DNA of 32,000 bases, taken from positions 236,811 to 268,810 of the forward strand of contig JBFWRY010000002.1 in the NCBI GenBank assembly GCA_050248655.1. The letters run 5' to 3'. Both the position numbers and the translations under genes were made by a program. Source of the DNA: Dehalococcoidia bacterium. Its GTDB lineage: Bacteria > Chloroflexota > Dehalococcoidia > Tepidiformales > Tepidiformaceae. This document shows, one piece after another, positions 10,466 to 24,483 of the stretch. Under the pieces are notes generated by a model. It made no database searches and was not told where the DNA came from. It saw only the letters and a program-made list of their open reading frames with translations. How positions within the stretch are numbered: the first letter of the stretch is position 1; every line of letters starts with the position of its first letter.

Positions 10466-11302
10466 CTACACCTTCGGCGCCAGGCCCGTCCGCTGCCCGC
10501 GCAGGCCCCGCAGCGCAAGGTCGACAGGGCCCAGCCGACGTACACCCTCGGGCCCGCGCGGCCCACCCTGGTTGCGCATCATTATGACATAATCGCCGAA
10601 GCCGGCTTCCATCCCGCTCGCATAGCCCATCAGGTCCTGCGCCTTGTTGATGGAAAGCTTGGTCATCCGGACGATCATCCGGTCGTTTTCGGCGACCCGC
10701 AGCGCGTAGTTGACGGTTTCCCGCTCCAGGTCCTCCGGCGCGCAGACGCGGTTGACGAACCCCGCTTCAACGGCCTCCGCGGCGGTCAGGAACCGGCTCT
10801 CGAAACACAGCTCCTTCGCTTTCTTCGGGGTGATGTCCCACGGCACCGAGGGGTACTCCAGCAGTGCCGGCAGGAACACTGCGCGGTCGCTGGCGAACAC
10901 GAGGTCCATCGACGCCGCGATCATCCAGCCTCCAAAGATGCAGAACCCATCCACCATCGCGATCGTTGGTTTTGGCATGTTCCGCCACTTCAGGGTGATG
11001 TCGAGGTTGTAGTGCTTGAATGCGTCATAGAACTCGATACCCGACTCCGGGAGTCCACGCGCTTCGCGGTCTGCAACGCTCTCCGGCGTGCCCAGGTCGT
11101 GCCCGGACGAAAAGTTGCCCCCGGCGCCTTCGAGGATCACCACCGCCACCTCGCGGTCGGCCATTGCCCGCTCAAGCGCCGCATCCAATTCGTCCAGCAG
11201 GTGGTAGCTCTGTGCGTTGCGATACTTCGGGCGGTTCAGCGTGATCCGCGCGATCGCGCCTTCAGTCCGGTACAGGACGACATCCTTCTCTCGTTCAACC
11301 AT
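10466..11302 (-). CDS. Enoyl-CoA hydratase/isomerase (crotonase) family protein
   Basis: ARITLNRPKYRNAQS..VVILEGAGGNFSSGHDL..KPTIAMVDGFCIFGG. ATG 11302 follows GGGAG. The listed ORF extends further upstream. Confidence 0.88.
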   Translation of the reverse strand: MVEREKDVVLYRTEGAIARITLNRPKYRNAQSYHLLDELDAALERAMADREVAVVILEGAGGNFSSGHDLGTPESVADREARGLPESGIEFYDAFKHYNLDITLKWRNMPKPTIAMVDGFCIFGGWMIAASMDLVFASDRAVFLPALLEYPSVPWDITPKKAKELCFESRFLTAAEAVEAGFVNRVCAPEDLERETVNYALRVAENDRMIVRMTKLSINKAQDLMGYASGMEAGFGDYVIMMRNQGGPRGPEGVRRLGPVDLALRGLRGQRTGLAPKV

Positions 11303-11413
11303 CGGTGCTGCATCTCCCTTCGGTTCCCCCACTCTACGGAGGGCAGCTCCCCGGAGCACGTCTGCGCAGCGTCGGCACGCGAACGGTCGTCGTCCCTCGC
11401 GTTCTCCTCTACG

Positions 11414-12247
11414 ATGCCGCAACACCGCACCAGGGAGCTTCCACCAGTGGATTTCGAGGACATCATCTACGAGGTCGATTCCGACGGGGTCGCCACGCTC
11501 ACCATCAACCGCCCCGAGCGCATGAACGCGCTTCGCCCCCAGACGACCGCCGAAATCCGCCAGGCGATTGCCCTCGCCCGCGATGACGATGCTGTCCGCT
11601 GCCTCCTCGTGACGGGCGCCGGCCGCGCCTTCTGTGCCGGCGACGACTTCCAGGCCATCTTCCTCGCCGACAACCGGTCCAACAGCCAGTTCAACCGGCA
11701 GGTACGCCGCATCAAGGAGGGGGAGGTCTCCCTCGACGACCTCTTCGCCCTCGAGAAGCCCACCGTCGCGGCGGTCAATGGCGCCGCCGTCGGCTACGGC
11801 ATGGACCTCGCCCTCTATTGTGACATCCGCTTCGCCTCGGAAAGCGCCCGCATGGGCTGGTTCTTCGTCCGTCGCGGCGTCCTCGGCACCGTTGGCGGCA
11901 CGTTCATCCTCCGCCAGCTGGTCGGCCTTTCAAAGGCCCTCGAACTGACGATGACCGGCGACATGGTGCCCGCCGAGGAGGCGCTCAAGATCGGCCTCGT
12001 CTCCAAAGTCGTGCCCGATGACCAGCTCCTCGCCGAGGCCCGCGCCATGGCCCGCAAGCTCGCCGGCGGCCCGCCCCTCGCCCAGCGCGCCGTCAAGCGC
12101 GCCATGCACAAGGGATTCCAGATGGATTGGAAGACCCTCGGCGAATACCAGCAGGCCCTCGGCGATGTCCTCTGGCAAACAGAAGACCACCGCGAAGGCG
12201 TCGATTCGTTCGTCGAAAAACGCGAGCCGTCGTACAAGGGGCGCTAG
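11414..12247 (+). CDS. Enoyl-CoA hydratase/isomerase (crotonase) family protein
   Basis: This is the C-terminal 278 codons of the artefactual 691-aa ORF 10172..12247. Motifs: ATLTINRPERMNAL..LLVTGAGRAFCAGDD..KPTVAAVNGAAVGYGMDLAL..EGVDSFVEKREPSYKG. An alternative start, GTG 11447, has GGGAG 9 nt upstream. Confidence 0.88.
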   Translation: MPQHRTRELPPVDFEDIIYEVDSDGVATLTINRPERMNALRPQTTAEIRQAIALARDDDAVRCLLVTGAGRAFCAGDDFQAIFLADNRSNSQFNRQVRRIKEGEVSLDDLFALEKPTVAAVNGAAVGYGMDLALYCDIRFASESARMGWFFVRRGVLGTVGGTFILRQLVGLSKALELTMTGDMVPAEEALKIGLVSKVVPDDQLLAEARAMARKLAGGPPLAQRAVKRAMHKGFQMDWKTLGEYQQALGDVLWQTEDHREGVDSFVEKREPSYKGR

Positions 12248-12255
12248 CTGCGGCC

Positions 12256-12274
12256 CCCGCCCGGTTGGGGCGGG
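12256..12274 (+). terminator. GC-rich hairpin downstream of the crotonase gene (possible intrinsic terminator)
   Basis: CCCGCCC-GGTTG-GGGCGGG (7-bp stem) begins 9 nt after the stop at 12245-12247. There is no U-tract. Confidence 0.3.
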
Positions 12275-12397
12275 CCCGGCGCAGTTGCCGGAGTATTGCG
12301 CCGCGGACCGCATCGCATCCGCCCGTCGTACACAGTCCTCGCGAAAACGGGCCCGTTCCGGCAGGGCCGTCTGCATGATCGTCAATCCAGAGATTCA

Positions 12398-12450
12398 AAG
12401 AGGGTGGTGGAGCTGGAGGGATTCGAACCCTCTACCTCAACACTGCCAGT
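12398..12450. repeat. Direct repeat copy 1: orphan 3' half of tRNA-Ala (nt 31-76 plus 7 nt downstream); putative distal att site
   Basis: AAGAGGGTGGTGGAGCTGGAGGGATTCGAACCCTCTACCTCAACACTGCCAGT is identical over 53/53 nt to 19866-19918. The adjacent sequence (12451 onward) does not encode a tRNA 5' half. Confidence 0.9.
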
Positions 12451-12622
12451 CTTACGCATGGCGTTCGCGGTCGTCCGCTCAGGTTCGCCAAGTTGACAGT
12501 AAGTCCTTCGCCGGTTGCCGCTGGCTGATGTCATCCGTGACAATTAATGTCAGCATTGATGTCGGATTCGAATGACCTCTGGGAACCAAGGCGGCAGCCA
12601 GTCGTGATCAGGCGAAATCGAT

Positions 12623-13372
12623 TTAGATCGTCTGGTTGCAGAGTGCAACCTGATGCCGTGTGTATCGCTCGAGGTTCGCAACCTGGGCCGTTGTGAGTCG
12701 GTCGCAGGCCCAGCCCCAGTGGATTGACACCCACTGCCCTGGCGACACATCGTCGACGAACCCTTTGCCGTCGATCCACCGCTGGACTGTCTCCGACTGT
12801 GGGGCGGCCAACTCCAGCGTTCCTTCGCGCAGCACGAGCGGCTGGACGCTCACCACCAGGTTCGCGCCGTCCACTGCGGTGACCTGGCCCCAACGAATGC
12901 GGCACTGCTCCATGGTGTGGAACAGGTGACTCGTGACCGCGCCAGACTTCATGAACCCGGCCCGAGGGTAGATCTCGAAGACATGAAAGCTGTGATGGGG
13001 CCGCGCCCCGGCCGGGATCTTGGTGACCAGCCAGTTCCAGTCGCCCGGCTTCGTTCGCGCCTTGAAACGTGTCTTCATCGAATCGAACAGCAGCCCCATG
13101 TCCACGTTGTCCAGGAGGCTGTTTCCGACCCAGTAGGCATCCACCACTCGCGCATCGAGCGGGTCCGCGATGTTGTTTGCTCGCGCGATCAACTGAAGGT
13201 ACGGGTACGCACCCTCGAACTGTCTCTCCAGTTGCAGCAGTCCCCCATCGACCACGCCGCTGGTCGTGTACTGGAAGAGAGCAAGGTCGTCGTCTCCTCC
13301 GCAGAAGCCGAGTTCGTTCGGACGGAACGCGTAGCGCGCGAAAAGGAGGGGGCCGGGGACCGTCCCGTTCAC
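12623..13372 (-). CDS. Conserved hypothetical protein, last gene of the hydrogenase operon (possibly the DUF6390-type family; C-terminal part HypC/HupF-like)
   Basis: GTG 13372 overlaps the EamA stop (GTGA). The C-terminal segment GQVTAVDGANLVVSVQPL..GQWVSIHWGWACDRLT resembles the HypC-type beta-barrel pattern (..V.VHVGFA..). The family name is from memory and unverified. Confidence 0.6.
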   Translation of the reverse strand: MNGTVPGPLLFARYAFRPNELGFCGGDDDLALFQYTTSGVVDGGLLQLERQFEGAYPYLQLIARANNIADPLDARVVDAYWVGNSLLDNVDMGLLFDSMKTRFKARTKPGDWNWLVTKIPAGARPHHSFHVFEIYPRAGFMKSGAVTSHLFHTMEQCRIRWGQVTAVDGANLVVSVQPLVLREGTLELAAPQSETVQRWIDGKGFVDDVSPGQWVSIHWGWACDRLTTAQVANLERYTRHQVALCNQTI

Positions 13373-14322
13373 GCCCCGCCTCCCGCCGCTTCGAGGGCGC
13401 CGGCTTGGCCGCGGTCCCTCCCTGCCCGCCAGGCAAGCACCGCCGTCAGCGCCACACCGACCATCAGGAGTGAATAACCGGCCAGGCGTTCGGCGTCCGG
13501 CATCGGACGCCCGTCCCAAATCTGCAGGGCTGCTGTTAGGGGTGCGGCCACGGTCAGCACGCATGTCACAGCGGTTGCTGGCGCAAGCTTGAGCGCCCCG
13601 TACCAGGTGCTTACGTACGCGACGAGAAACGCTGCGGTGAGTAGCAGCCACCGCCATTGCTCGGCATCGAACCCAAAGAGATCGCTTGCCTTGCCGGTCA
13701 CGGCGAGGTAGCAGAAAAGGACCAGGGCGCCGCCACCCATCCGCGCTGCCACCCCAATCGAAGCCGAAACGCCCCGCAGCACCTGCCGCGCAATGACCGT
13801 CTCGACTGCCCAGAGGAGCGTCGCGGCCAGGATCATGAGTTCGCCACTCCCGAACGATGCCTCCGCCGGCCGTCCGATGAGCACCTGTGCCAGCAGCAGA
13901 ACGCCGATCGCCAGCAGATGGCCCGGGCCGAGGCGTTCACCCAACAGGGGGACTGCCAGCAGCGCCACCCAGATGAACAGCGTCTTTTGGATAAACGCAG
14001 CGTTCGCCGCCGTCGCCTGGCTGAGCCCTTCGAAGAACAGGATGAACGGGATACTGCCGCCGACGACGGCGATCGTTCCCAGCTTCAACAGTGTGGCGCG
14101 CGGTAGTGCCCGCGCCTCCTGCATCGTCGCCGGTCGCAGCAGCGCTGCCACGATCACGACGCCGACCAGACTGTTCTTTGCTGCGGTGAACACAGCGCTG
14201 TCGTCGAAGTGGCGAACAGCATGGCCGTTCAGGAAGATCGAGACACCGCTGATGAGCGCTGCCGTGAGGGCGAGGCTGATACCCAGGCGAGGCGTCGCGG
14301 CCACGGGGCCCGATCGGTTCAT
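13369..14322 (-). CDS. EamA/DMT-superfamily permease
   Basis: 317 aa with ~10 predicted TM helices in two EamA-like halves. ATG 14322 follows GGAGGG and overlaps the hypC stop (ATGA). Confidence 0.8.
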   Translation of the reverse strand: MNRSGPVAATPRLGISLALTAALISGVSIFLNGHAVRHFDDSAVFTAAKNSLVGVVIVAALLRPATMQEARALPRATLLKLGTIAVVGGSIPFILFFEGLSQATAANAAFIQKTLFIWVALLAVPLLGERLGPGHLLAIGVLLLAQVLIGRPAEASFGSGELMILAATLLWAVETVIARQVLRGVSASIGVAARMGGGALVLFCYLAVTGKASDLFGFDAEQWRWLLLTAAFLVAYVSTWYGALKLAPATAVTCVLTVAAPLTAALQIWDGRPMPDAERLAGYSLLMVGVALTAVLAWRAGRDRGQAGALEAAGGGA

Positions 14323-14597
14323 TTGAGTCCCTCCGTTGGTTGGTTCGTCGGTTCGTTCGTCAGGTCTTCCCAGGCCCCGAGCAGCATCGCCCCGAACGTG
14401 TTCCGCTCGGTCGCTTCCTCCTCGGTAACCCGCTCGATGACGGCCCCGCCCGCTACCAGCACGCGGTCTCCGCAGGCAAGGTCTTCGACATAAGAAAGGC
14501 ACTGCATCGTCGGTGCGTATGGAAAATCGACGGTCGCCATCACCAGTCCGGCGCTCTCGTGCAGCGCTACGACCGTCCCGGCAGTCCCAAGGCACAT
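14319..14597 (-). CDS. hypC: Hydrogenase maturation chaperone HypC/HupF family
   Basis: Starts MCLGTAG.. (the essential N-terminal Cys2). It is 92 aa and sits between hypA and the rest of the operon. Its ATG shares one nt with the hypA stop (TGATG). Confidence 0.85.
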   Translation of the reverse strand: MCLGTAGTVVALHESAGLVMATVDFPYAPTMQCLSYVEDLACGDRVLVAGGAVIERVTEEEATERNTFGAMLLGAWEDLTNEPTNQPTEGLK

Positions 14598-14923
14598 CAG
14601 GACACCTTCCCGTCGACCACTTCCAGTTCGACCGATTCCTCCCGCGCGGGCAGCGGCGCCCCACCGCAACCTGGGCATTCCACGTCGCCGGTGTCGGCTG
14701 TGTATCCGGCCGCGCAGACCGAGCAGGCGAGCTCCATCGGCATGTGCACGATCTGCAGGTCCAGGGCCATGCCAGCTCCGCCGAGGTGCGCTAGCAGCGC
14801 TGCGTCGAACTCCTCCGGCCGGGCATGGTGACCTCCCGAGACGAGTAGCCGAAGCTGCCGCCCGGCGAGGCCCTGCTCCGCCACCGTCGCGGCGATCGCC
14901 GCAGCGAGGCCCGCTTCATGCAT
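14597..14923 (-). CDS. hypA: Hydrogenase nickel-insertion protein HypA
   Basis: N-terminal MHE nickel motif (MHEAGLAAAI..) and a zinc site CSVC-x12-CPGC; 108 aa. Confidence 0.88.
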   Translation of the reverse strand: MHEAGLAAAIAATVAEQGLAGRQLRLLVSGGHHARPEEFDAALLAHLGGAGMALDLQIVHMPMELACSVCAAGYTADTGDVECPGCGGAPLPAREESVELEVVDGKVS

Positions 14924-15428
14924 GCAGCATCGCCTCCCGTAATGCCCAGGCTTCGTCTCGTGCCGCCGCAAGCGCCCCCGGCATGGCCGCGCTGACGACC
15001 GCGCTCAGGTCGAGGCAATAGTCGATGGTCTGCGGCTGTATTCCCACCAGTGCCACCGCTTGCGGCAGTGCGCCCGTCAGTCGTGCGACGGCTAGCAGGT
15101 CGCCCGCGCCCACCTGGTGCGGCGACATCCGCGTCCCGAACGCCGCCGTCAGATCATCGCCGCGGAAGATCCTGACGGTCCCGGGTTTGGCTCCCACGTT
15201 GAGCGCATCGAGTAAGAGCAGCGCACCGGCGTCGGCCACCAGTGGCAGCAACTCGATCCCCAGCGTCCCGCCGTCCACCACCATTGCGCCCCCAGGGAGC
15301 AGCGCAGGTTCCAACTCCAGCGCCTCTGCGAGGTGGATTCCGACACCCTCGTCCTGCAGAAGAACGTTACCAACCCCGAGGATGAGCAGCGGTCGCTCAA
15401 GGGCGATGGGGACAGGCGCGACTGACAC
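14916..15428 (-). CDS. hupD: [NiFe]-hydrogenase maturation endopeptidase (HyaD/HupD family)
   Basis: LLILGVGNVLLQDEGVGIH..DGGT.G..LL....LLLLDA..G..PG matches the HyaD family pattern. GTG 15428 lies 2 nt after the large-subunit stop. Confidence 0.85.
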   Translation of the reverse strand: MSVAPVPIALERPLLILGVGNVLLQDEGVGIHLAEALELEPALLPGGAMVVDGGTLGIELLPLVADAGALLLLDALNVGAKPGTVRIFRGDDLTAAFGTRMSPHQVGAGDLLAVARLTGALPQAVALVGIQPQTIDYCLDLSAVVSAAMPGALAAARDEAWALREAMLHA

Positions 15429-15430
15429 CG

Positions 15431-17131
15431 TTACAGCACCCGTACCTGGACACCAGACCCTCTGGCCGGGTCGTACACGTGCACCGCGCACGCCATGCAT
15501 GGGTCGAATGAGTGCACCGTCCGCAGGATCTCAACAGGTTGTTCCGGGTCAGCGACCGGGGTCCCGACGAGGGCCTCCTCCCATGCCCCTCGGCGGCCCC
15601 TTTCGTCCCGGGGAGATCCGTTCCACGTGCTGGGCACTACCAATTGGTAGTTCGCCACCTTCTGGTCCTTGATGACAACCCAATGACCCAGTGCTCCCCG
15701 CGGCGCCTCCTCGAATCCCCAGCCCTGGGCATCCGTCGGCCACGACGCAGGCTCCCACTTCTCCGTCGCCGCCACCTCCAGCACCCCGGTGTCCATGTTG
15801 CTTGCGAGCTGATCGACCCATCCGCCCAGACGGTTGGCCAGCACTTGTGTCTCCAGCGCACGCGCTGCAATGCGTCCCAGTGTGCTGAAGAGGGCGTCTT
15901 TGGTGACGCCCAGCTTGGAAATCAGGCCGTCGACCGCCGATACGAACTCCTGCCGTCCCGACGCGTACGCCACCAGCACTCGTGCGAGGGGGCCGACCTC
16001 GTAGGGCTCATCCTCGTATCGTGGTGCCTTCAGCCAGCTGTATTTCTCGTACCCCTCGAGCGTCTCATAGGGTGGGGGTGGCCCGGCGTACGTCGGCTTC
16101 GTTTCTCCTTCCCACGGATGCAATGCACGGTCCGAGGCGTACTCGTACCACGAATGCGCGACCGTCTCGGCAATCTGCGCCTGATCCACCGGGAGCACCT
16201 TCGAAAGGTCCCGCCCTACGATCCGGCCGGCCGGGAACACATAGCTGCTCTCCGCGCCGGTGGCGTCGGGGAAGTCGCCGTACACCAGGTAGTTGCCAAT
16301 ACCCTTCCCGATGCTCGCCCAGTCCTTGTACTTTCCGGCGATGTACGTGACGTCCGGAATGTACACCTGGTCGACGAACTCCTTCGCGCCAGTGATCTGC
16401 TGCCGGATGGTAGCCAGGCTTGCCCGGTTCAACCCGGTCGGCGAATCGTTTGCCATGCGCAGCGCCATCCCCCCCACAACATACGTCTGAGGGTGTGGGT
16501 TCTTGCCTCCAAGGATGGCGTGCACCTTCACGATACCCCGTTGCCACTCCAGCGCCTCGAGGTAGTGCGCCACGAACAGCAGGTTCTCTTCCGGGGTCAG
16601 GGTGTACGCCGGGTGGCCCCAGTAGCCGTTGGCAAACGGCCCGAGCTGCCCTGAACTCACGAACGTCTTGAGTCGCTCAAGGACGGTTGTGAAGTAGCTC
16701 GCGGAGTTGTTCTTCCATGGGCTGATCGATTGTTGGAGCGTCGCGACCCTGGCCGGGTCGGCCGTCGTCGCCGAGACCACATCCACCCAGTCCAACGCGT
16801 GCAGGTGATAGAAGTGCACCACGTGGTCATGGACGAACTGGGTCGCCCCGATCACGTTTCGCACCAGCCGCGCGTTTGCCGGGATGGTGATCCCGAGCGC
16901 GTCCTCGACTGCTCGCACTGAGGCGAGCGCATGCACAGTGGTGCACACGCCGCAGGCCCGCTGTGCGAACATCCACGCATCCCGCGGGTCCCGTCCCTGG
17001 ATGATGTTCTCCAGCCCCCGGAACATGGTGCCCGTGCTCCACGCATCCTTCACCGTGCCGTCGGACACTTCGACTTCGATGCGGAGGTGGCCCTCAATGC
17101 GCGTGATCGGGTCAATCGCGATGCGAGTCAA
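15431..17131 (-). CDS. hupL: [NiFe]-hydrogenase large (catalytic) subunit, group 1-like uptake type
   Basis: IDPITRIEGH; N-terminal Ni-Fe ligands RACGVCTTVH; C-terminal DPCMACAVH followed by a 15-aa cleavable extension. TTG start overlaps the hupS stop (TTGA), with GGAGGA upstream. Confidence 0.95.
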   Translation of the reverse strand: MTRIAIDPITRIEGHLRIEVEVSDGTVKDAWSTGTMFRGLENIIQGRDPRDAWMFAQRACGVCTTVHALASVRAVEDALGITIPANARLVRNVIGATQFVHDHVVHFYHLHALDWVDVVSATTADPARVATLQQSISPWKNNSASYFTTVLERLKTFVSSGQLGPFANGYWGHPAYTLTPEENLLFVAHYLEALEWQRGIVKVHAILGGKNPHPQTYVVGGMALRMANDSPTGLNRASLATIRQQITGAKEFVDQVYIPDVTYIAGKYKDWASIGKGIGNYLVYGDFPDATGAESSYVFPAGRIVGRDLSKVLPVDQAQIAETVAHSWYEYASDRALHPWEGETKPTYAGPPPPYETLEGYEKYSWLKAPRYEDEPYEVGPLARVLVAYASGRQEFVSAVDGLISKLGVTKDALFSTLGRIAARALETQVLANRLGGWVDQLASNMDTGVLEVAATEKWEPASWPTDAQGWGFEEAPRGALGHWVVIKDQKVANYQLVVPSTWNGSPRDERGRRGAWEEALVGTPVADPEQPVEILRTVHSFDPCMACAVHVYDPARGSGVQVRVL

Positions 17132-18354
17132 CGTTCCTCCTCCGTCCCTTCATCCGGGCTTGCGTCATCGGCGTTCTGCCCTGCGTCATGGCCCCGTCGC
17201 GACCGTACTGCGATGAACGCACCCGCCCCGCCCGCGGCCGCCACGGCGACCGCCCCGAGCCCTATAAGCAGGGCGCCGTTGTCGTCGTCGCCGCTCGAAG
17301 GACCGGAACCTGGCGTGGCGGTGCTGCCTGGCGGCGCTGGCGTACGCGTTTCGGGAACGGGTGTGCGGTAGTCCACCGGCGTCGGCGTTGGCACCACCTG
17401 CGGTCGCCCGCTGGCGTAGAAAGGCGACATCGCATCCCAGAACTGCGGCATCGTGCAGCCTACACACCCGTGCCCCGAGGAAACCGGCCAGCTCGTCCCG
17501 CCGTTGAACTTCAGGGTCGAACAGTTCGCGTCCGTTGATGGCCCCTTGCAGCCCATTTCGTACAGGCACCAGCCCTTGCGGTGGCCTTCGTCCCCCCACG
17601 CCTTCACGAATTCCTTGGCTCGATAGTGGGGCAGGCTCTCGCAGGTCGCATGTACCTGGTCGCCATAGGCGAACAGCGGTCGATTGAGACTGTCTACCTC
17701 GGGCCACTTCTGCAGCGCCAGGTACTGGATCACCAGGGCCGTCAGGTTGTCCGGGTTCATCGGGCAACCCGGGAGGTTGATCAGCCGGATCGTCGGGTCG
17801 TTCAGCCACGTGCTCACGCCCACCGCGCCCGTCAGTCCACCACGAGCCGCGGGGAGGCCCCCGTCAAGGGCGCAGGTCCCGACCGCGACCGTGGCCAGCG
17901 CCCCCTTCACGATCTCCCTTGCAACCTCAGCAAACGCACGGCCGCCGATCGTGCAATACACCCCGCCGTCCGCCAGTGGGATGGCCCCCTCGATCACTGC
18001 AACATATCCGTTCGGAAACTCGCGCAGGATGTCTTCAATCGACTTCTCAGTGCGCTTTCCAGAGGGAGCCATCAACAGGTGATGGTGGTCCAACGAGAGC
18101 GTCTGCAGGATAAGTTCCGAGATCGTCGGCTGCTCCGCTCTCAGCAGCGCCTCCGAGTTTCCCGCGCAGTCCTGCCCTTCCAGCCAGATAACCGGGATGC
18201 GGGGTGAAGACTGGAGACCTCTTGCAATCTCGAAGGCGAACCGTGGCGGAAGGGCCAGGGCGGCGGCCATCGTCGCGCAGTACTTCAAGAAGCGCCGTCG
18301 CGAAACGCCGCGCTGGGCGAGTACCTCTGCGAGGTCGATCCGGCCGGCATCCAT
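17128..18354 (-). CDS. hupS: [NiFe]-hydrogenase small subunit, Tat-exported, with C-terminal membrane anchor
   Basis: Twin-arginine signal SRRRFLKYC. FeS ligands GTCA, GCP, HATC, GWCLYEMGCKGP, NCS and GHGCVGC align with Desulfovibrio-type small subunits. Pro/Thr linker followed by TM helix GALLIGLGAVAVAAAGGAGAFIAV. ATG 18354 follows GGAGGAG; the listed ORF starts at 18441. Confidence 0.93.
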   Translation of the reverse strand: MDAGRIDLAEVLAQRGVSRRRFLKYCATMAAALALPPRFAFEIARGLQSSPRIPVIWLEGQDCAGNSEALLRAEQPTISELILQTLSLDHHHLLMAPSGKRTEKSIEDILREFPNGYVAVIEGAIPLADGGVYCTIGGRAFAEVAREIVKGALATVAVGTCALDGGLPAARGGLTGAVGVSTWLNDPTIRLINLPGCPMNPDNLTALVIQYLALQKWPEVDSLNRPLFAYGDQVHATCESLPHYRAKEFVKAWGDEGHRKGWCLYEMGCKGPSTDANCSTLKFNGGTSWPVSSGHGCVGCTMPQFWDAMSPFYASGRPQVVPTPTPVDYRTPVPETRTPAPPGSTATPGSGPSSGDDDNGALLIGLGAVAVAAAGGAGAFIAVRSRRGHDAGQNADDASPDEGTEEER

Positions 18355-19013: not shown

Positions 19014-19712
19014 ATGCTGTCACGAATCTCGCCGCGGCAACTGCGCCGGCTTGCAGTTACCCTCCTCGTGCTGACGCTCGCCTACAACGTGGCAGAGGGC
19101 GCCATCGCCATCGTCGCCGGACTCCGGGCGGACAGCATCGTCCTCCTGACATTCGGCGCCGACAGCTACCTCGAAGTCCTTGCCGCCTCCGCCGTCCTCT
19201 GGCGCCTCTCTTTTCGCGACGAAGAGAGCGGGGAACGGGCCGAACGGAAGGCCATGCGCCTGATTGGCGCCAGCTTCCTGCTGCTCGCCGCAGCGGTCGC
19301 CGTCCAGGCCGCCCTTGCCTTCGCGGGGGACGGTCAGGCCGAGTCGTCCCCGCTCGGCATCGGGTTGCTTGTCGCGTCGCTCGTCCTGATGCCCCTGCTC
19401 TCCTTCGCCAAGCTCTGGACAGCTGCCCGGCTGCGCCTCCCGGTCATCGCAGCAGAAGCCCGCGAGACGATCGCCTGTTCCTACCTCAGCCTCACGGCAC
19501 TTGCTGGCCTCGCTGCCACGGCCGCGATCGGAGCGGCCTGGGTCGACCCATTCGCGGCGCTGCTGCTCATCCCGTGGCTCGTCCGCGAAGGCCTGGAGGG
19601 CGTCCGCGGTGACGCCTGCTTCGACGGGCTTGGCGTGTGCTTCTGCCGGCAGTGCCTCTGGGGCGTTCGAAACTGCCCGCCGAACGATGCTTGCGTCCCG
19701 CGTTGCTGCTGA
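19014..19712 (+). CDS. Cation-diffusion-facilitator-like membrane protein (TM domain only) with Cys-rich C-terminal tail
   Basis: N-terminal pattern LAYNVAEGAIAIVAGLRADSIVLLTFGADSYLEVLAA..LWRL is typical of short 'cation transporter' CDF-type proteins. 5-6 TM helices and no His residue. The tail CFDGLGVCFCRQCLWGVRNCPPNDACVPRCC has 8 Cys in 31 aa. GGAG lies 5 nt before the ATG. Confidence 0.6.
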   Translation: MLSRISPRQLRRLAVTLLVLTLAYNVAEGAIAIVAGLRADSIVLLTFGADSYLEVLAASAVLWRLSFRDEESGERAERKAMRLIGASFLLLAAAVAVQAALAFAGDGQAESSPLGIGLLVASLVLMPLLSFAKLWTAARLRLPVIAAEARETIACSYLSLTALAGLAATAAIGAAWVDPFAALLLIPWLVREGLEGVRGDACFDGLGVCFCRQCLWGVRNCPPNDACVPRCC

Positions 19713-19865: not shown

Positions 19866-19918
19866 AAGAGGGTGGTGGAGCTGGAGGGATTCGAACCCTC
19901 TACCTCAACACTGCCAGT
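19866..19918. repeat. Direct repeat copy 2 (tRNA-proximal att site); overlaps the 3' part of the intact tRNA-Ala
   Basis: Identical 53-mer to 12398-12450. Positions 19873-19918 are nt 31-76 of the tRNA. Confidence 0.9.
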
Positions 19919-19948
19919 GTTGCGCTCTCCCAAGTGAGCTACAGCCCC
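19873..19948 (-). tRNA. tRNA-Ala (anticodon GGC), CCA encoded
   Basis: Minus strand is GGGGCTGTAGCTCACTTGGGAGAGCGCAACACTGGCAGTGTTGAGGTAGAGGGTTCGAATCCCTCCAGCTCCACCA, which folds as a 76-nt cloverleaf. Anticodon loop is CTGGCAG, the G3:U70 Ala identity pair is present, and the T-loop is GGTTCGAATCC. Confidence 0.95.
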
Positions 19949-20007: not shown

Positions 20008-20976
20008 CTACTTCCGCGTCCGCGGGTCCAGCGCGTCCCGCAACCCGTCCCCAAGGAACGTGAAGCACAGCATCAGGATCGCCACCATAACCGCCGGCCA
20101 GATCAACTCGATCGAGTTCGTCTGGATGTTGTCCTGGCCCGACCGGATCAGCGACCCGAGGCTTGCGTCCGGCGGCGGAACACCCAGTCCGATGAAGCTC
20201 AGTGCAGCCTCCGCGAAGATCGCCAGCGGGATGCCGAACGTCGTCGCCACGATGATCGCGCTCAGTGTGTTCGGGAGCATGTGGTACCGCACCACGCGCC
20301 ACGGGCTCGCACCGGTCGCCTGCGCCGCCAGCACATAGTCCTGCTGTTTAATCTGCAACATTTGCCCGCGCACCAGTCGCGCCACCGTTACCCACGCCAC
20401 CAGCCCGATGGCAATTACGGTCACGAGGAACACGCCGCCGAAACCCGGGATCTGCGGGTTCCCCTCACCGATGATCGGCCAGCCGCGCCCAAACAGGATC
20501 TGGCGCATGAGGATGATCGCCAGCAGGTCGGGGAACGCGTACGCCAGGTCCGTGAACCACATCAACACCCCGTCGCCACGCTTGCCGCCAAGTGCCGCGC
20601 CCATGCCTACGGAGATTCCGATCACCAGCACGAACACTTGCGTGATCAACCCGAGCTTCAGCGAAAACAGCGTGCCCTGCATCAGTCGCGACCACAGGTC
20701 CCGCCCGAGCCCATCGGTGCCAAGCCAGTAATTGCCGCTCGGCGCGGCCCGGATGTTCTGGTAGTTCTGGATCGCCGGGTCATTGTTCTGGACGAACGTC
20801 CCAAGCTCGGAAAGCACGGCAAGGGCCGCAATCAGCAGCAACAGCAGGCCGCTGGCCAGCGCCAGCCGGTTCCGCGCCAACCGCTGAAACGCCTGGCCCC
20901 AGAGGCCGCGCTCTTTCGTGTGCAGGGTTTGCTTGGTGAAGTCATAGGGCTCCGCGGTTGCCTGTTTCGCTGCCAC
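20008..20976 (-). CDS. ABC transporter permease (peptide/nickel type, OppC/DppC/NikC-like)
   Basis: WLGTDGLGRDLWSRL motif and the EAA-loop region AAQATGASPWRVVRYHMLPN. GTG start follows AGGAGAGG. Confidence 0.88.
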   Translation of the reverse strand: MAAKQATAEPYDFTKQTLHTKERGLWGQAFQRLARNRLALASGLLLLLIAALAVLSELGTFVQNNDPAIQNYQNIRAAPSGNYWLGTDGLGRDLWSRLMQGTLFSLKLGLITQVFVLVIGISVGMGAALGGKRGDGVLMWFTDLAYAFPDLLAIILMRQILFGRGWPIIGEGNPQIPGFGGVFLVTVIAIGLVAWVTVARLVRGQMLQIKQQDYVLAAQATGASPWRVVRYHMLPNTLSAIIVATTFGIPLAIFAEAALSFIGLGVPPPDASLGSLIRSGQDNIQTNSIELIWPAVMVAILMLCFTFLGDGLRDALDPRTRK

Positions 20977-20991
20977 GCTGCGCTGCCTCTC

Positions 20992-21939
20992 CTACAACCG
21001 GATCCGCGGGTCAACAACCGCGTACAGCAGGTCAACCACGAGATTCATGATCGCGATTACAACCGTGAAGAACACCGTCACGCCCATGATTACTTCGTAA
21101 TCACGGATAAGCACTGACCGGACGAACAGCTGGCCAACTCCTGGAATGCCGAACGCTGTCTCAACGATGAAAGACCCGACCACCAGCCCCGCAAAGATCG
21201 GCCCCAGGATGGTCAGGACGGGGATGAGCGCGTTCTTCGCCGCGTGCCCGATGAGGACCTGTCGCTGCCGCATACCCTTCGACCATGCGGTGCGAATGTA
21301 GTCCTGTCGCAGGACCTCCAGCATCGCCGCTCGCGTAATTCGGGCGATGAATGCCATCGACAAGAAGCCAAGCGAGAGCGTCGGCAACACCACCTGTCGC
21401 CAGTTCCCGAAGTCGCCACTGAACCACTGCGTGAAGCCGTAGTCGTTCGCCAGTACCGTGAACCAGCCGAGCTCTACCGAGAAAATGATCTGCAGAATCG
21501 GCGCGAGCACGAAGCTTGGCAGCGCTGCCCCCGCCGTCGCCACGAATACGCCCGCGTAATCGCCAGCGCCGTTCTGGTTCAGCGCAGCGAGGCTCCCCAA
21601 CGCCAGCCCCACGGTCGTCGCGAAGAGGAACGTGGCAAGCCCAAGTTGGATCGAGACTTCCATGCGCTCGCTGATGATCGTCCGCACTTCGCGATCGTTC
21701 GTCAGCGAAACGCCGAGGTCGCCCTGGGCGAGGTTTGCGATGTACTTCACGTAACGGACTGCGAACGGGTCATCAAGCCCGTATTTCTTTTCAAGGTTCT
21801 TCCGGGTTGCGTCCGAAAGCGGCCGATCACTATCGAATGGGCCACCCTCGACCGCGTTCATCAGTAGGAACGTAATCGTGGCAACTGCAAGTACGAGGGG
21901 AATAATCGCGAGGACGCGCCGGAGCGTGTAGGCGAACAT
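20992..21939 (-). CDS. ABC transporter permease (peptide/nickel type, OppB/DppB/NikB-like)
   Basis: MFAYTLRRVLAIIPLVLAVATITFLLM.. is a typical OppB-type N-terminus, with EAA region DYIRTAWSKGMRQRQVLIGHAAKNAL. Internal ATG 21939 of the listed ORF. Confidence 0.88.
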   Translation of the reverse strand: MFAYTLRRVLAIIPLVLAVATITFLLMNAVEGGPFDSDRPLSDATRKNLEKKYGLDDPFAVRYVKYIANLAQGDLGVSLTNDREVRTIISERMEVSIQLGLATFLFATTVGLALGSLAALNQNGAGDYAGVFVATAGAALPSFVLAPILQIIFSVELGWFTVLANDYGFTQWFSGDFGNWRQVVLPTLSLGFLSMAFIARITRAAMLEVLRQDYIRTAWSKGMRQRQVLIGHAAKNALIPVLTILGPIFAGLVVGSFIVETAFGIPGVGQLFVRSVLIRDYEVIMGVTVFFTVVIAIMNLVVDLLYAVVDPRIRL

Positions 21940-22024
21940 GGGCGGCTCGGGTCCTGGATCTGAAATGAGGTGAGGGGGACCCGTGAGGGCCCCCCTCGAT
22001 GCTTCGGCCATGAAGACCGGGAAC

Positions 22025-23713
22025 CTACTTCTTGAGGCCCCAGTATTCAGGATTCCAGTCGCCCGGGACGAACGTGTCGCCAGGGCGCTTCCACTCCACC
22101 ATGCCCGTGATCGTGTCCTTCACGATGAACGCGGCCAGGGTGTGGTAGATCGGGGCGATGCCGCTCGCCTGCTCCAGCAGGACCTTCTCAGCGTCGCGGT
22201 AGGCCTTCCGGCGGGCTTCGTCGTTCGTATTGAACTTGGCGCCCGCAATCAGGTCGTCCAGCGCCTTGATGCTGGTCTTGGTCTTGTTGATCGAGCCGTC
22301 GGTTTCCCAGAGGCCGATGAACCAGTTCTCCGGGTCCGGATAGTCTTCCTGCCAGCCGCCGAGTACGAGCTGGAAGTCCGTGGCGTTGAAACGCGCAGAA
22401 CGCGTCTTCGAGTCCACGAACTCGAGCTTGATCTCGATCCCCAGGTGCTTCTTCCACTCAGCTTGCAGGAACTCGCCGGCCAGCTTGTTGGTCTGCGAAT
22501 CGGTCTGCAGCAGCGTGATTGAGGGGAATCCGGCGCCGTTTTCGTAGCCGGCCTTCTTCAGGTTTTCCTTCGCCTTCGTCACGTCGAACGCGAGGTACTG
22601 GTCGTATTCGCCGCCCTTCAGCGCGTTGCGCTGCGGGGGAACCCAGCTCGTGGTGGCGGTGTTCCCGTTCTGGAAGACCACCGTCATCATCGTCGCGCGG
22701 TCCGTCGCCTGCGAAAGCGCGAGTCGCACTTCCGGCTTCGACAGCGTCGCGTCCTTCATGTTGAATTCGATGCCGATCGTGCGGGTTGCCGGGTACAGGA
22801 ACAGCTGCTTGTCTTGGCCGAATTCCGTCTTCAGCTTGTCCAGCTCAGCCTTGTTCGCCAGTGTCGCCTGCACTTCGTTGGTCCGGAACGCGTTGTTCAG
22901 GACCGAATCATCGTCGACGTACTTGAGGACGATCTTGTCGAGGTTCGGCTTCTGATCGCCGGCCCAGTTCGGGTTCGGGATCAATTCCATGCTCGACTTC
23001 TCGGTGTACGCGCTCGGCATGAACGGGCCGTTGTACACGTTCTCCATCGGGCCAGGCCACGCCGCGTTCGGCGATGCAACCTTGTGGCTCGGGATCGGGA
23101 AGGTCGGCCAGAGGGCCAGCAGGATCGGGAACGTCGGCTGTGCCGCGCTCAGCTTGATCTCGACCGTCAGGTCGTCCTTTGCGGTGACGCCAAGAGCCTT
23201 CAGAAGGGTGTCCTTCTCGGCGTCCGATGCCTCTGTGGCAGCGTAGTAATCATCGCAACCGACAATCGCGGTCAGGATGTACTGGTAGTGCCCGGCATTG
23301 TCCGGATTGCACGTGCGCTGGATGCCCAGCACGAAGTCCTTCGCGGTCAGCGGCTCACCGTCCGACCACTTCAGGTCCTTCTGCAGTTTGATCGTGTACG
23401 TCTTGCCGTCTGACGAAACCGTCGGGGCCCCGTCAGCCATCGCCGCCACTGGCTTGTTGTCCAGGTCCAGCTCGTACATGCCGCGCCACACCTTGAAGTA
23501 GTGGGCGATGTCCTGGGCGAAGTCGCTGAAGTGCGGGTCCCAGGTCTCGAACTGCTTGGCGCCGATCGTGATCGTGCCACCCTTTGCTGCGGCTGCGCCG
23601 CCCCCTCCGCCCCCGCCGTCGTCATCATCGTCATCGCCACAGGCGACGGCGACGCTGAGCACAGCGAAGAGCGAAATGAGGCCGAGCAACAGCCTCCATT
23701 TCGAACTGGTCAT
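22025..23713 (-). CDS. ABC transporter substrate-binding lipoprotein, family 5 (peptide/nickel)
   Basis: Lipoprotein signal LFAVLSVAVAC followed by a DDDDDDGGGGGGG linker. The ~560-aa body has family-5 SBP character. ATG 23713 follows AAGGAGGG. Confidence 0.85.
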   Translation of the reverse strand: MTSSKWRLLLGLISLFAVLSVAVACGDDDDDDGGGGGGGAAAAKGGTITIGAKQFETWDPHFSDFAQDIAHYFKVWRGMYELDLDNKPVAAMADGAPTVSSDGKTYTIKLQKDLKWSDGEPLTAKDFVLGIQRTCNPDNAGHYQYILTAIVGCDDYYAATEASDAEKDTLLKALGVTAKDDLTVEIKLSAAQPTFPILLALWPTFPIPSHKVASPNAAWPGPMENVYNGPFMPSAYTEKSSMELIPNPNWAGDQKPNLDKIVLKYVDDDSVLNNAFRTNEVQATLANKAELDKLKTEFGQDKQLFLYPATRTIGIEFNMKDATLSKPEVRLALSQATDRATMMTVVFQNGNTATTSWVPPQRNALKGGEYDQYLAFDVTKAKENLKKAGYENGAGFPSITLLQTDSQTNKLAGEFLQAEWKKHLGIEIKLEFVDSKTRSARFNATDFQLVLGGWQEDYPDPENWFIGLWETDGSINKTKTSIKALDDLIAGAKFNTNDEARRKAYRDAEKVLLEQASGIAPIYHTLAAFIVKDTITGMVEWKRPGDTFVPGDWNPEYWGLKK

Positions 23714-23744
23714 ACGCGTTCCCTCCTTGGTTAGACCGAACGGT

Positions 23745-23774
23745 AGGTTAGGCACAACTCACCGCCAAGGTCAA
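23745..23774 (-). promoter_or_regulatory. Candidate sigma-70-type promoter for the ABC importer operon
   Basis: Minus strand reads TTGACC-18 nt-TAACCT in a locally AT-richer patch, ~30 nt upstream of the SD and start codon. Confidence 0.3.
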
Positions 23775-24039: not shown

Positions 24040-24483
24040 TTAGCGGCAGCTTCCGCATAGCCCATACAGCTCCACGCTGTGGCCTGCCAGGTCGAACCCG
24101 CGGCGGTCCGCGTTCGCGCGGATGATGGCGTCCAGGTCCGGGTCAACGAACTCCGACACGCGTCCACACTGGCTACAGATCAGGTGATGGTGATGGTCGC
24201 CCTGCGAAAGCTCGTAGCGGATGCCGCCGTCCTCCAGCACCATCCGGCACACGAGGTCCGACTCCTGCAGCAGCTTCACCGTCCGGTAGACCGTCGCCCG
24301 CCCGACCTCCGGCAACGCCGCGGCAAGCTCTTCAATGGTGAACGGCCCCTCGATCACGGCGATGGCCCGCAGCACCTCGCGGCGCGCTCCCGTCACTCGC
24401 ACTCCCGAGTTCGCTAGCCGGCTCGTCACGGTCTCAGTCACGTTCACTACCCGATGGTAGAAATCGCCGATCAACGCTGTCAA
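24040..24483 (-). CDS. Fur-family metalloregulator (Zur/Nur/Fur type not resolvable)
   Basis: Winged-helix part GVRVTGARREVLRAI..ATVYRTVKLL, the metal sites DHHHHLICSQCGRV and a C-terminal CGSC. The start is uncertain (listed TTG 24483 or GTG 24447). Confidence 0.85.
   Translation of the reverse strand: MTALIGDFYHRVVNVTETVTSRLANSGVRVTGARREVLRAIAVIEGPFTIEELAAALPEVGRATVYRTVKLLQESDLVCRMVLEDGGIRYELSQGDHHHHLICSQCGRVSEFVDPDLDAIIRANADRRGFDLAGHSVELYGLCGSCR

Follow-up and report, generated by a model that had tools for sequence, protein, structure and literature searches.

A long-tethered, group-1f-type [NiFe]-hydrogenase with asparagine in its proximal cluster motif and no linked cytochrome b gene in Chloroflexota

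Introduction

The subject of this work is HupSL, a predicted [NiFe]-hydrogenase encoded in a stretch of 32,000 nucleotides from a Dehalococcoidia bacterium (Chloroflexota; GenBank assembly GCA_050248655.1, contig JBFWRY010000002.1, positions 236,811 to 268,810 of the forward strand), hereafter called the window. Its small subunit, HupS, carries asparagine at the position of the second cysteine of the proximal iron–sulphur cluster motif, and its operon contains no gene for a cytochrome b. The closest described enzymes are those of group 1f, to which Geobacter sulfurreducens Hya also belongs.

In published surveys, the enzymes of Roseiflexus and Acidobacterium are assigned to group 1f (PMC6776052, PMC5900883), and the group 1f enzymes of Frankia have a large subunit, HupL, of about 573 amino acids and a HupS of 410–420 amino acids (PMC11879354). 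Reports summarised in PMC6776052 credit the group with support of aerobic H2 uptake, even at sub-atmospheric levels. Like the described members from Roseiflexus, Acidobacterium capsulatum/ailaaui and Frankia synton-3, the window encodes a HupS of about 410 amino acids exported by the twin-arginine translocation (Tat) pathway, a HupL of about 570 amino acids and the maturation gene hupD after the structural genes. The relatives recovered from these taxa share the CxxN (or CxxD) proximal motif and are the nearest neighbours in the HupS tree. They have, however, the gene order hupS–hupL–cytochrome b–hupD together with a conserved linker and a histidine-bearing helix in HupS, and the subclade of the window has neither. 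The three-gene core of group 1f, hupS–hupL–cytochrome b, is thus incomplete in the window.

The proximal motif leads to a second, more distant group. Huc of Mycobacterium smegmatis (group 2a; PDB 7UTD, 7UUS) and cyanobacterial HupS (group 2a; PMC4070099 Table 1) share the motif C-x-G-N-[T/S] with the window, CAGNSE in the latter corresponding to ACSGNT in HucS. Huc differs in being cytosolic, without a Tat signal, in having a 3Fe distal cluster as well and in reducing menaquinone through the HucM stalk, whereas HupS of the window is exported. The first distal ligand of group 2a is not histidine (glutamine in Nostoc, a 3Fe distal cluster in Huc), but the window keeps His235. The sequence closeness expected of a group 2a member is also lacking, the E-values being 1e-26 for HucS and 1e-58 for HucL.

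The hydrogenase of Desulfovibrio vulgaris Miyazaki F (DvMF, group 1b) uses cytochrome c3. It has the closest small subunit of known structure (PDB 1H2A, 4U9H), with the same fold, ligand spacing and three-cysteine medial site as HupS, but it has CxxC in the proximal motif and no membrane helix. With Escherichia coli Hyd-1 (HyaABC) and the Cupriavidus MBH (group 1d), the window enzyme has in common Tat export, a C-terminal small-subunit helix and an oxidation-biased respiratory role. The group 1d enzymes differ by the supernumerary Cys19 and Cys120 of their [4Fe-3S] cluster (CxCC, GxxxxC), where the window has Gly65 and Gly166, and by a HyaC-type cytochrome b, which the window lacks. The partner genes of group 1c (Hyb-type; HybA/HybB) and group 1e (Isp-type; isp1/isp2) are absent from the window, in which hupS and hupL overlap by 4 nt. 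Groups 1h (Cupriavidus AH, PDB 5AA5) and 1l also have a non-cysteine residue at a proximal ligand position, which is discussed in connection with O2 insensitivity. This residue is aspartate, not asparagine, the enzymes have no Tat signal, and 5aa5_A is very distant (E 2e-23). Group 1l has, in addition, five small transmembrane genes between the subunit genes (10.1101/2020.08.06.239558), and the window has none. Finally, a "1f variant" without cytochrome b and linked to an NrfD-like subunit has been described from Anaerolineae (10.1101/2021.08.23.457424). Three Chloroflexota loci of the present comparison (L066, L075, L078) have likewise dropped cytochrome b. The variant differs from the window, which has no substitute module, by a Tat-ferredoxin and an NrfD protein encoded between hupS and hupL and by CxxC or CxxD in the proximal motif.

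The hydrogenase of the window and its group assignment

The gene hupS (17128–18354, minus strand, stop codon included) encodes 408 amino acids. The product matches Oxidored_q6 (PF01058) and NiFe_hyd_SSU_C (PF14720, E 9e-30) in Pfam, and TIGR00391 (hydA, 366 bits) in NCBIfam. In a phmmer search of the PDB, the solved small subunit most similar to it is DvMF 1h2a_S (E 2e-93, 47% identity). Tat export, already proposed in the earlier note on this DNA, is borne out by the twin-arginine motif SRRRFLKY (residues 18–25; 18280–18303, minus strand) and a match to the Tat signal model TIGR01409 at residues 17–35. HupS thus has the Tat signal and the three-cluster C-terminal domain of a group 1 small subunit, and 11 of its 12 ligand positions are standard. 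The start of hupL (15431–17131, minus strand; 566 amino acids; PF00374, E 3e-229) overlaps the hupS stop codon in the four nucleotides TTGA. Both Ni/Fe motifs of HupL are intact (RACGVCTTVH and DPCMACAVH, conforming to the group 1 patterns RxCGxCxxxH and DPCxxCxxH), and 15 residues follow the final histidine as the cleavable extension typical of group 1. Residues 3–551 align with the Allochromatium enzyme 3myr_B, the closest solved large subunit (E 1e-213). Directly after hupL lies hupD (14916–15428, minus strand), which encodes the maturation endopeptidase (TIGR00072, 134 bits), with no cytochrome b gene between the two.

In a neighbour-joining tree of the HupS catalytic core, which has no bootstrap support and is indicative only, the window falls into a clade with nearly all asparagine and aspartate sequences, inside which a few cysteine forms are nested. 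This clade includes the enzymes of Roseiflexus (L013), Acidobacterium (L025) and the Desulfuromonadales. It stands apart from DvMF (1b), from a proxy for group 1c (P0132, best solved match E. coli Hyd-2), and from a cluster formed by P0136 (best match the Allochromatium 1e enzyme 3myr_A) and CTCC-type 1d sequences. Because the clade contains taxa whose enzymes are called 1f in the literature, and because the subunit sizes of 566 and 408 amino acids agree with those of Frankia group 1f, the window enzyme is filed, indirectly, as group-1f-type. Membership of group 1l or 1h was considered and rejected, as the PDB matches standard group 1 enzymes best, with 5AA5 at a great distance, and as no transmembrane genes are interposed.

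Asparagine at the proximal cluster

The proximal motif of HupS is C63-A-G-N66-S-E (18151–18168, minus strand). The phmmer alignment with 1h2a_S runs without gaps through the N-terminal stretch ("qdcagnsea" over "aectgcses") and sets Asn66 against the second cysteine of the proximal CxxC, as the earlier note had read it from a Desulfovibrio-type alignment. The codon, AAC at 18157–18159, is two substitutions away from TGY, so that a single-base error is unlikely, as had likewise been argued. Read through a MAFFT alignment, the ligand positions are C63, N66, C161 and C197 (proximal), H235, C238, C263 and C269 (distal), and C278, G296, C297 and C300 (medial). All other expected ligands are therefore present, in agreement with the earlier reading: three cysteines plus asparagine at the proximal site, three cysteines at the medial site with glycine where many enzymes have proline, and histidine plus three cysteines at the distal site. 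The supernumerary-cysteine positions of the [4Fe-3S] type are occupied by Gly65 and Gly166. No extra conserved cysteine that could compensate for Asn66 was found across 172 CxxN-type sequences; Cys134 is also present in CxxC and CxxD relatives.

Asparagine occupies this position in all 120 of the closest database homologues (51–76% identity; motif QDC[AC]GN[ST]E), which come from metagenome-assembled genomes of Dehalococcoidia, Limnocylindrales and other Chloroflexota. The best 150 clusters of a 1.8-billion-protein representative library (50% identity) comprise 23 with CxxN, 9 with CxxD, 1 with CxxE and 78 with CxxC. A wider set of 86 loci, 80 of them from a genome scan with one genome per species and three peptide patterns, none of which covered the proximal motif, has asparagine in 56 cases, aspartate in 20 and cysteine in 10. 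The taxa with asparagine include Chloroflexota, Acidobacteriota, Nitrospirota, Myxococcota, several Proteobacteria, Acidimicrobiia, Gemmatimonadota and Campylobacterota, and the Desulfuromonadales have aspartate instead. Among the 172 CxxN-type sequences, asparagine and the nine other cysteine ligands are invariant and the distal histidine is present in 171 (one has glutamine). Asn66 is thus the conserved state of a large, multi-phylum lineage and not a peculiarity of the window gene.

The earlier note had allowed that CxxN might be the hallmark of a known subgroup. It is the conserved state of an extensive lineage, the named members of which go under group 1f in the literature; this lowers the novelty of the observation and leaves it correct. 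A survey from 2014 lists cysteine to asparagine at "proximal position 2" as a natural variant, with Nostoc punctiforme HupS as the example, and cysteine to aspartate at this position in Geobacter metallireducens (PMC4070099). A search of the available paper library for asparagine at this position in group 1f found nothing.

Two further deviations of HupS lie in otherwise conserved stretches. At residues 90–92 (about 18079–18087), the window reads LDHHH and 165–167 of the 172 relatives read LDYHE, which amounts to tyrosine-to-histidine and glutamate-to-histidine changes in a near-invariant motif. In the loop after the third proximal ligand (CALDGGLPAARGGLTGA), GG at residues 172–173 replaces the near-universal PN of AAKPNPTGA. 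In a sample biased to close homologues, this GG is almost confined to Asn66 sequences (130 of 132 GG sequences), and 45 asparagine sequences retain PN. Either the surroundings of the proximal cluster have been remodelled, or the pattern is no more than a sign of common descent.

A replaced tail and the loss of cytochrome b

Behind the catalytic domain, HupS continues into a tether rich in proline, threonine, serine and glycine (residues 314–360; 17275–17415, minus strand), which contains the subclade-conserved element PTPVxYxTPVP. These four residues make up 58% of the 50 amino acids counted, and an AlphaFold2 (AF2) model, used only for tether disorder, gives a predicted local distance difference test score (pLDDT) below 50. 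The tether is followed by a single C-terminal transmembrane helix (residues 361–383; 17206–17274, minus strand; mean Kyte–Doolittle hydropathy 2.0; AF2 helix at 367–389), which lacks the histidine of the cytochrome-b-linked relatives and has none at all. The predicted cytoplasmic tail (17131–17205, minus strand) starts with RSRRG and ends in an acidic stretch. The earlier description of a tether of about 45 residues rich in proline, threonine and glycine, one transmembrane helix and an acidic tail thus holds. A C-terminal sorting signal (PEP-CTERM, LPXTG and the like) was considered and rejected: there is no NCBIfam match, and about 20 acidic residues extend beyond the basic cluster, which points to a plain anchor.

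Pfam searches of all sizeable flanking open reading frames found no gene for a cytochrome b, a HybA/HybB, NrfD or Isp protein or a c-type cytochrome in the operon, as already noted earlier, or anywhere in the window. These encode a ClC channel, a hydrolase, an epimerase, enoyl-CoA hydratases, a thiolase, ALAD, a Fur-family regulator and a peptide/nickel-type ABC transporter. A tblastn search of the window with the cytochrome b of a relative gave a best E-value of 0.73, and in a scan of the window for redox motifs Fer4 was absent and CxxCH occurred singly in two places, both in unsupported reading frames.

Cytochrome b is the rule among the relatives. Its gene is present at 60 of the 86 loci, almost always in the order hupS–hupL–cytochrome b–hupD; the sister CxxN lineages from Limnocylindrales and Chloroflexia are among them. 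About 98 of the 120 close homologues have an 18-residue linker (RRLPxPPPFxxxVTADQ[IV]G) followed by a helix with a conserved histidine (..AAHG..). About 22 clusters (P0001–P0021 and P0027) have instead a linker of 42–62 residues with 51–63% proline, threonine, serine and glycine and a helix without the conserved histidine. These long linkers carry conserved elements of their own, either PTPVxYxTPVP or PxPDPRPRP. The truncated clusters P0016 and P0024 have no helix at all and fit neither pattern. Six independent long-tether loci (the window/L001; L004/L007; L006; L087; L088; L089) all read hupS–hupL–hupD, have no cytochrome b gene within about 10 kb and form one clade in the neighbour-joining tree. 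This distribution indicates that the subclade of the window lost the cytochrome b gene of the operon and exchanged the conserved tail, and that its present state is derived. The statement that no electron-transfer partner is encoded stands for this locus, but has to be refined: the absence is derived and subclade-specific, as the sister CxxN lineages keep cytochrome b.

Other arrangements were seen among the relatives. The Bellilinea locus L078 has a Tat-ferredoxin and an NrfD protein encoded between hupS and hupL (11161–13219), an arrangement that matches the Anaerolineae "1f variant" (10.1101/2021.08.23.457424). The Acidobacteriaceae locus L032 has a cytochrome-b-like gene in the same place (11269–11913), and the small subunits of three Chloroflexota loci with CxxD (L038, L048, L077) have no membrane helix or anchor at all. 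A 170-residue reading frame before hupS in L088 was examined as a conserved upstream partner and discarded; it encodes a DUF2202 ferritin-like putative lipoprotein that occurs immediately upstream of hupS in some loci only (L088, 9489–10001; L004, 8391–8927; a remnant in L089, 9910–9996) and is absent from the window.

Interpretation and alternatives

The best clue to the proximal cluster comes from Huc. The HucS sequence (7utd_B; SVLWFQGGACSGNTMSF) was recovered from the PDB with a HupS-like peptide that served only as a probe; it reads ACSGNTMSF and so contains the same C-x-G-N-T motif. In a 1.52 Å cryo-electron microscopy map, combined with electron paramagnetic resonance (EPR), all three HucS clusters are assigned as [3Fe-4S], "indicated by density and the fourth coordinating residue" (PMC10017518). 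The relationship between HucS and HupS is distant (E 1e-26, compared with 2e-93 for the CxxC enzyme DvMF), and for this reason the motif common to HucS and the lineage of the window is most simply explained by convergence. Because HucS has a [3Fe-4S] cluster behind the same CxGN[T/S] motif, it is favoured, with moderate confidence, that the three remaining cysteines of HupS also bind a proximal [3Fe-4S] cluster. Asn66 would then only form a hydrogen bond to the cluster, and the relay would be [3Fe-4S]–[3Fe-4S]–[4Fe-4S](His). The couple of a 3Fe cluster lies roughly 250 mV more positive than the [4Fe-4S]2+/+ couple (PMC10017518), and such a relay would raise the potential and bias the enzyme towards H2 oxidation with a high-potential (aerobic) acceptor, which fits the reports of aerobic and sub-atmospheric H2 uptake by group 1f. 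The electrons would leave through the His-ligated distal cluster to a partner other than the canonical cytochrome b. This would be either a carrier that diffuses outside the cytoplasm or a membrane protein encoded at another place, to which the flexible tether gives access. With these elements included, we consider it probable that HupSL works as a respiratory uptake [NiFe]-hydrogenase of group-1f type, which is exported by Tat and held on the outer face of the cytoplasmic membrane by the single HupS helix.

Several points weigh against this interpretation. The 1f placement is indirect, as it comes from a tree without bootstrap values and not from a HydDB classification, and the nearest structure of HupL is a 1e enzyme (3myr_B). 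The cluster type of HupS rests on analogy, and the model for it, HucS, is distant, its motif is probably of independent origin and may sit in a different structural context. In cyanobacterial HupS, which shares the asparagine, the cluster has been described as an Asn-ligated [4Fe-4S], with reference to EPR work (PMC6616624). Finally, a cytochrome b or another partner could be encoded elsewhere in the genome, since the search covered the window and the loci.

The strongest competitor, although the less likely one, is that the proximal cluster is still a [4Fe-4S] cubane whose fourth iron is bound by the amide oxygen or nitrogen of Asn66 or by a water or hydroxide held by it, so that the potential is tuned and no iron is lost. 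Reviews give the cyanobacterial cluster as [4Fe-4S] with three cysteines and one asparagine (PMC6616624), an Alteromonas enzyme in which asparagine was engineered at this position kept measurable activity (PMC4070099), and related lineages have aspartate or glutamate here, the former being an accepted cluster ligand in group 1h. However, the cyanobacterial assignment is older than the Huc structure and based on a homology model, and Huc, the sole high-resolution structure of the CxGN type, shows [3Fe-4S] without a signal of reduced [4Fe-4S] (PMC10017518). The "atypically ligated" [4Fe-4S] cluster of the earlier note is therefore probably the wrong picture, since the identical motif of Huc holds [3Fe-4S]. 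The aspartate of group 1h, cited there as a precedent, is better replaced by the identical CxGN[T/S] of group 2a (cyanobacterial HupS and HucS).

The second alternative, that the operon has lost no more than its linkage to a partner of the canonical kind (a HupC/HyaC-type cytochrome b or a HybA/NrfD module), which is encoded elsewhere in the genome, is doubtful. It draws on the sister lineages that use cytochrome b with the same CxxN, on the Anaerolineae relatives that use the Tat-ferredoxin and NrfD pair between hupS and hupL (L078), and on the retention of the distal histidine ligand, which is needed for intermolecular transfer; moreover, the search was made within the window and the loci. 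Yet the tail replacement coincides with the loss of cytochrome b, which argues against a simple relocation of the gene. The RLPxxPxF..TADxIG linker and the helix histidine, which go with cytochrome b in all the other homologues, have been lost from every one of the about 22 subclade clusters. At none of the six subclade loci does a cytochrome b gene lie within about 10 kb, and a disordered tether of 45–60 residues is ill-suited to a fixed docking geometry.

The accessory genes of the operon offer a third candidate. Downstream of hupD lie, all on the minus strand, genes for a hypA-like nickel metallochaperone (14597–14923, 108 amino acids), HypC (14319–14597, 92 amino acids), an EamA/DMT-family membrane transporter (13369–14322, 317 amino acids) and a DUF6390 protein (12623–13372, 249 amino acids); the genes from hupD onwards mostly overlap one another. 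That the EamA protein and DUF6390 have taken over from cytochrome b the roles of anchoring the enzyme in the membrane and accepting its electrons is very improbable. The pair is translationally coupled to the operon in five of the six subclade loci, and EamA is an integral membrane protein. Against this, the pair is missing from the subclade locus L087, coexists with cytochrome b in L010, L016 and L021, and occurs as hypC–EamA–DUF6390 without a nearby structural hydrogenase in L090 (7779–9741) and beside a cytosolic 3b-like hydrogenase in L091 (7785–9738); DUF6390 has no signal peptide and EamA no redox motif. The AF2 model of DUF6390 (pLDDT 90) consists of a helical N-domain, which is a new domain, fused to a beta-barrel C-domain of the HypC fold. 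The best Foldseek match of the barrel is HypC 2z1c_B (probability 1.00), and the Pfam HypC match is weak (E 0.016). Cys24, His127, His130, Cys157, His218 and Cys223 are invariant, and Cys157 is located at the start of the barrel, where HypC has its essential cysteine. Some sources already name DUF6390 homologues "hydrogenase maturation factor", and a search of the available paper library found no mention of the family. The other contexts of the cassette and the match of the DUF6390 model to HypC rule the pair out as a redox partner; DUF6390 is a probable maturation factor and hypC–EamA–DUF6390, to judge from these contexts, is a conserved three-gene cassette for maturation or metal supply.

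A sequencing or assembly error or a decaying hupS, for which nothing speaks beyond the departure from the textbook motif, is excluded as the source of Asn66, as five contigs of separate assemblies encode the identical protein, the codon is two substitutions from cysteine, asparagine is invariant in the 172 relatives with intact ligands, and the genes of the operon are intact and overlapping.

The reading of HupSL as an exported enzyme with a 3Fe proximal cluster can be extended, with low probability, to the subclade as a whole. Its enzyme would be an ectoenzyme independent of cytochrome b and quinone. The catalytic HupSL head, with two [3Fe-4S] clusters, would move to and fro between the membrane and the cell surface layer on a disordered stalk of 45–60 residues, and its His-ligated distal cluster would deliver electrons to a high-potential carrier that is free to diffuse (of the cupredoxin or cytochrome c type) or directly to another surface complex. 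In the same scenario, a proximal [3Fe-4S] cluster would be the norm in a widespread exported group 1 lineage.

Genomic surroundings

The hydrogenase operon lies next to a tRNA gene. The 3' part of tRNA-Ala(GGC) (19873–19948, minus strand) belongs to one copy of a 60-nt direct repeat (19866–19925), and the second copy (97% identical) lies at 12398–12457. The repeat brackets a 7.4-kb segment with the whole hydrogenase operon and one membrane-protein gene, which is a signature of a tRNA-integrated island. No integrase was found inside the segment; in the related locus L004, a tRNA-Arg and a phage-type integrase come after DUF6390. The membrane-protein gene (19014–19712, plus strand) is divergent from hupS and not conserved in the other subclade loci. 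Its predicted product of 232 amino acids matches cation-efflux proteins only weakly (E 0.0012) and is very rich in cysteine at the C-terminus (..CFDGLGVCFCRQCLWGVRNCPPNDACVPRCC).

Just beyond tRNA-Ala follow, on the minus strand, a peptide/nickel-type ABC importer consisting of an SBP_bac_5 binding protein and two permeases (20008–23755) and a Fur-family regulator (24040–24483). SBP_bac_5 genes are also found upstream of hupS in L087, and the importer could serve as a nickel supply. A scan of the operon for promoters and terminators gave counts at or below those of shuffled sequence.

Significance

The new element is the cytochrome-b-less, long-tethered Chloroflexota subclade; CxxN itself is a hallmark of an already named exported type and a catalogued substitution. 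The all-[3Fe-4S] relay of Huc was introduced as a feature that no other characterised hydrogenase has and that is central to the oxidation of H2 in air. Its proximal motif is fixed in a large, exported, multi-phylum group 1 lineage of soil and mat bacteria (Acidobacteriota, Chloroflexota, Nitrospirota and others). If this lineage also has a 3Fe proximal cluster, high-potential relays would be a common, convergently evolved route to aerobic H2 oxidation, and group 1f would be a tractable second test system besides Huc. A proximal [3Fe-4S] cluster, so far found only in the cytosolic Huc, would then help to explain the aerobic and sub-atmospheric H2 oxidation of the lineage. The tethered subclade represents a natural experiment in the rewiring of a membrane-bound hydrogenase after the loss of its quinone-reducing partner, and it points to a further electron acceptor in aerobic Dehalococcoidia-like Chloroflexota.

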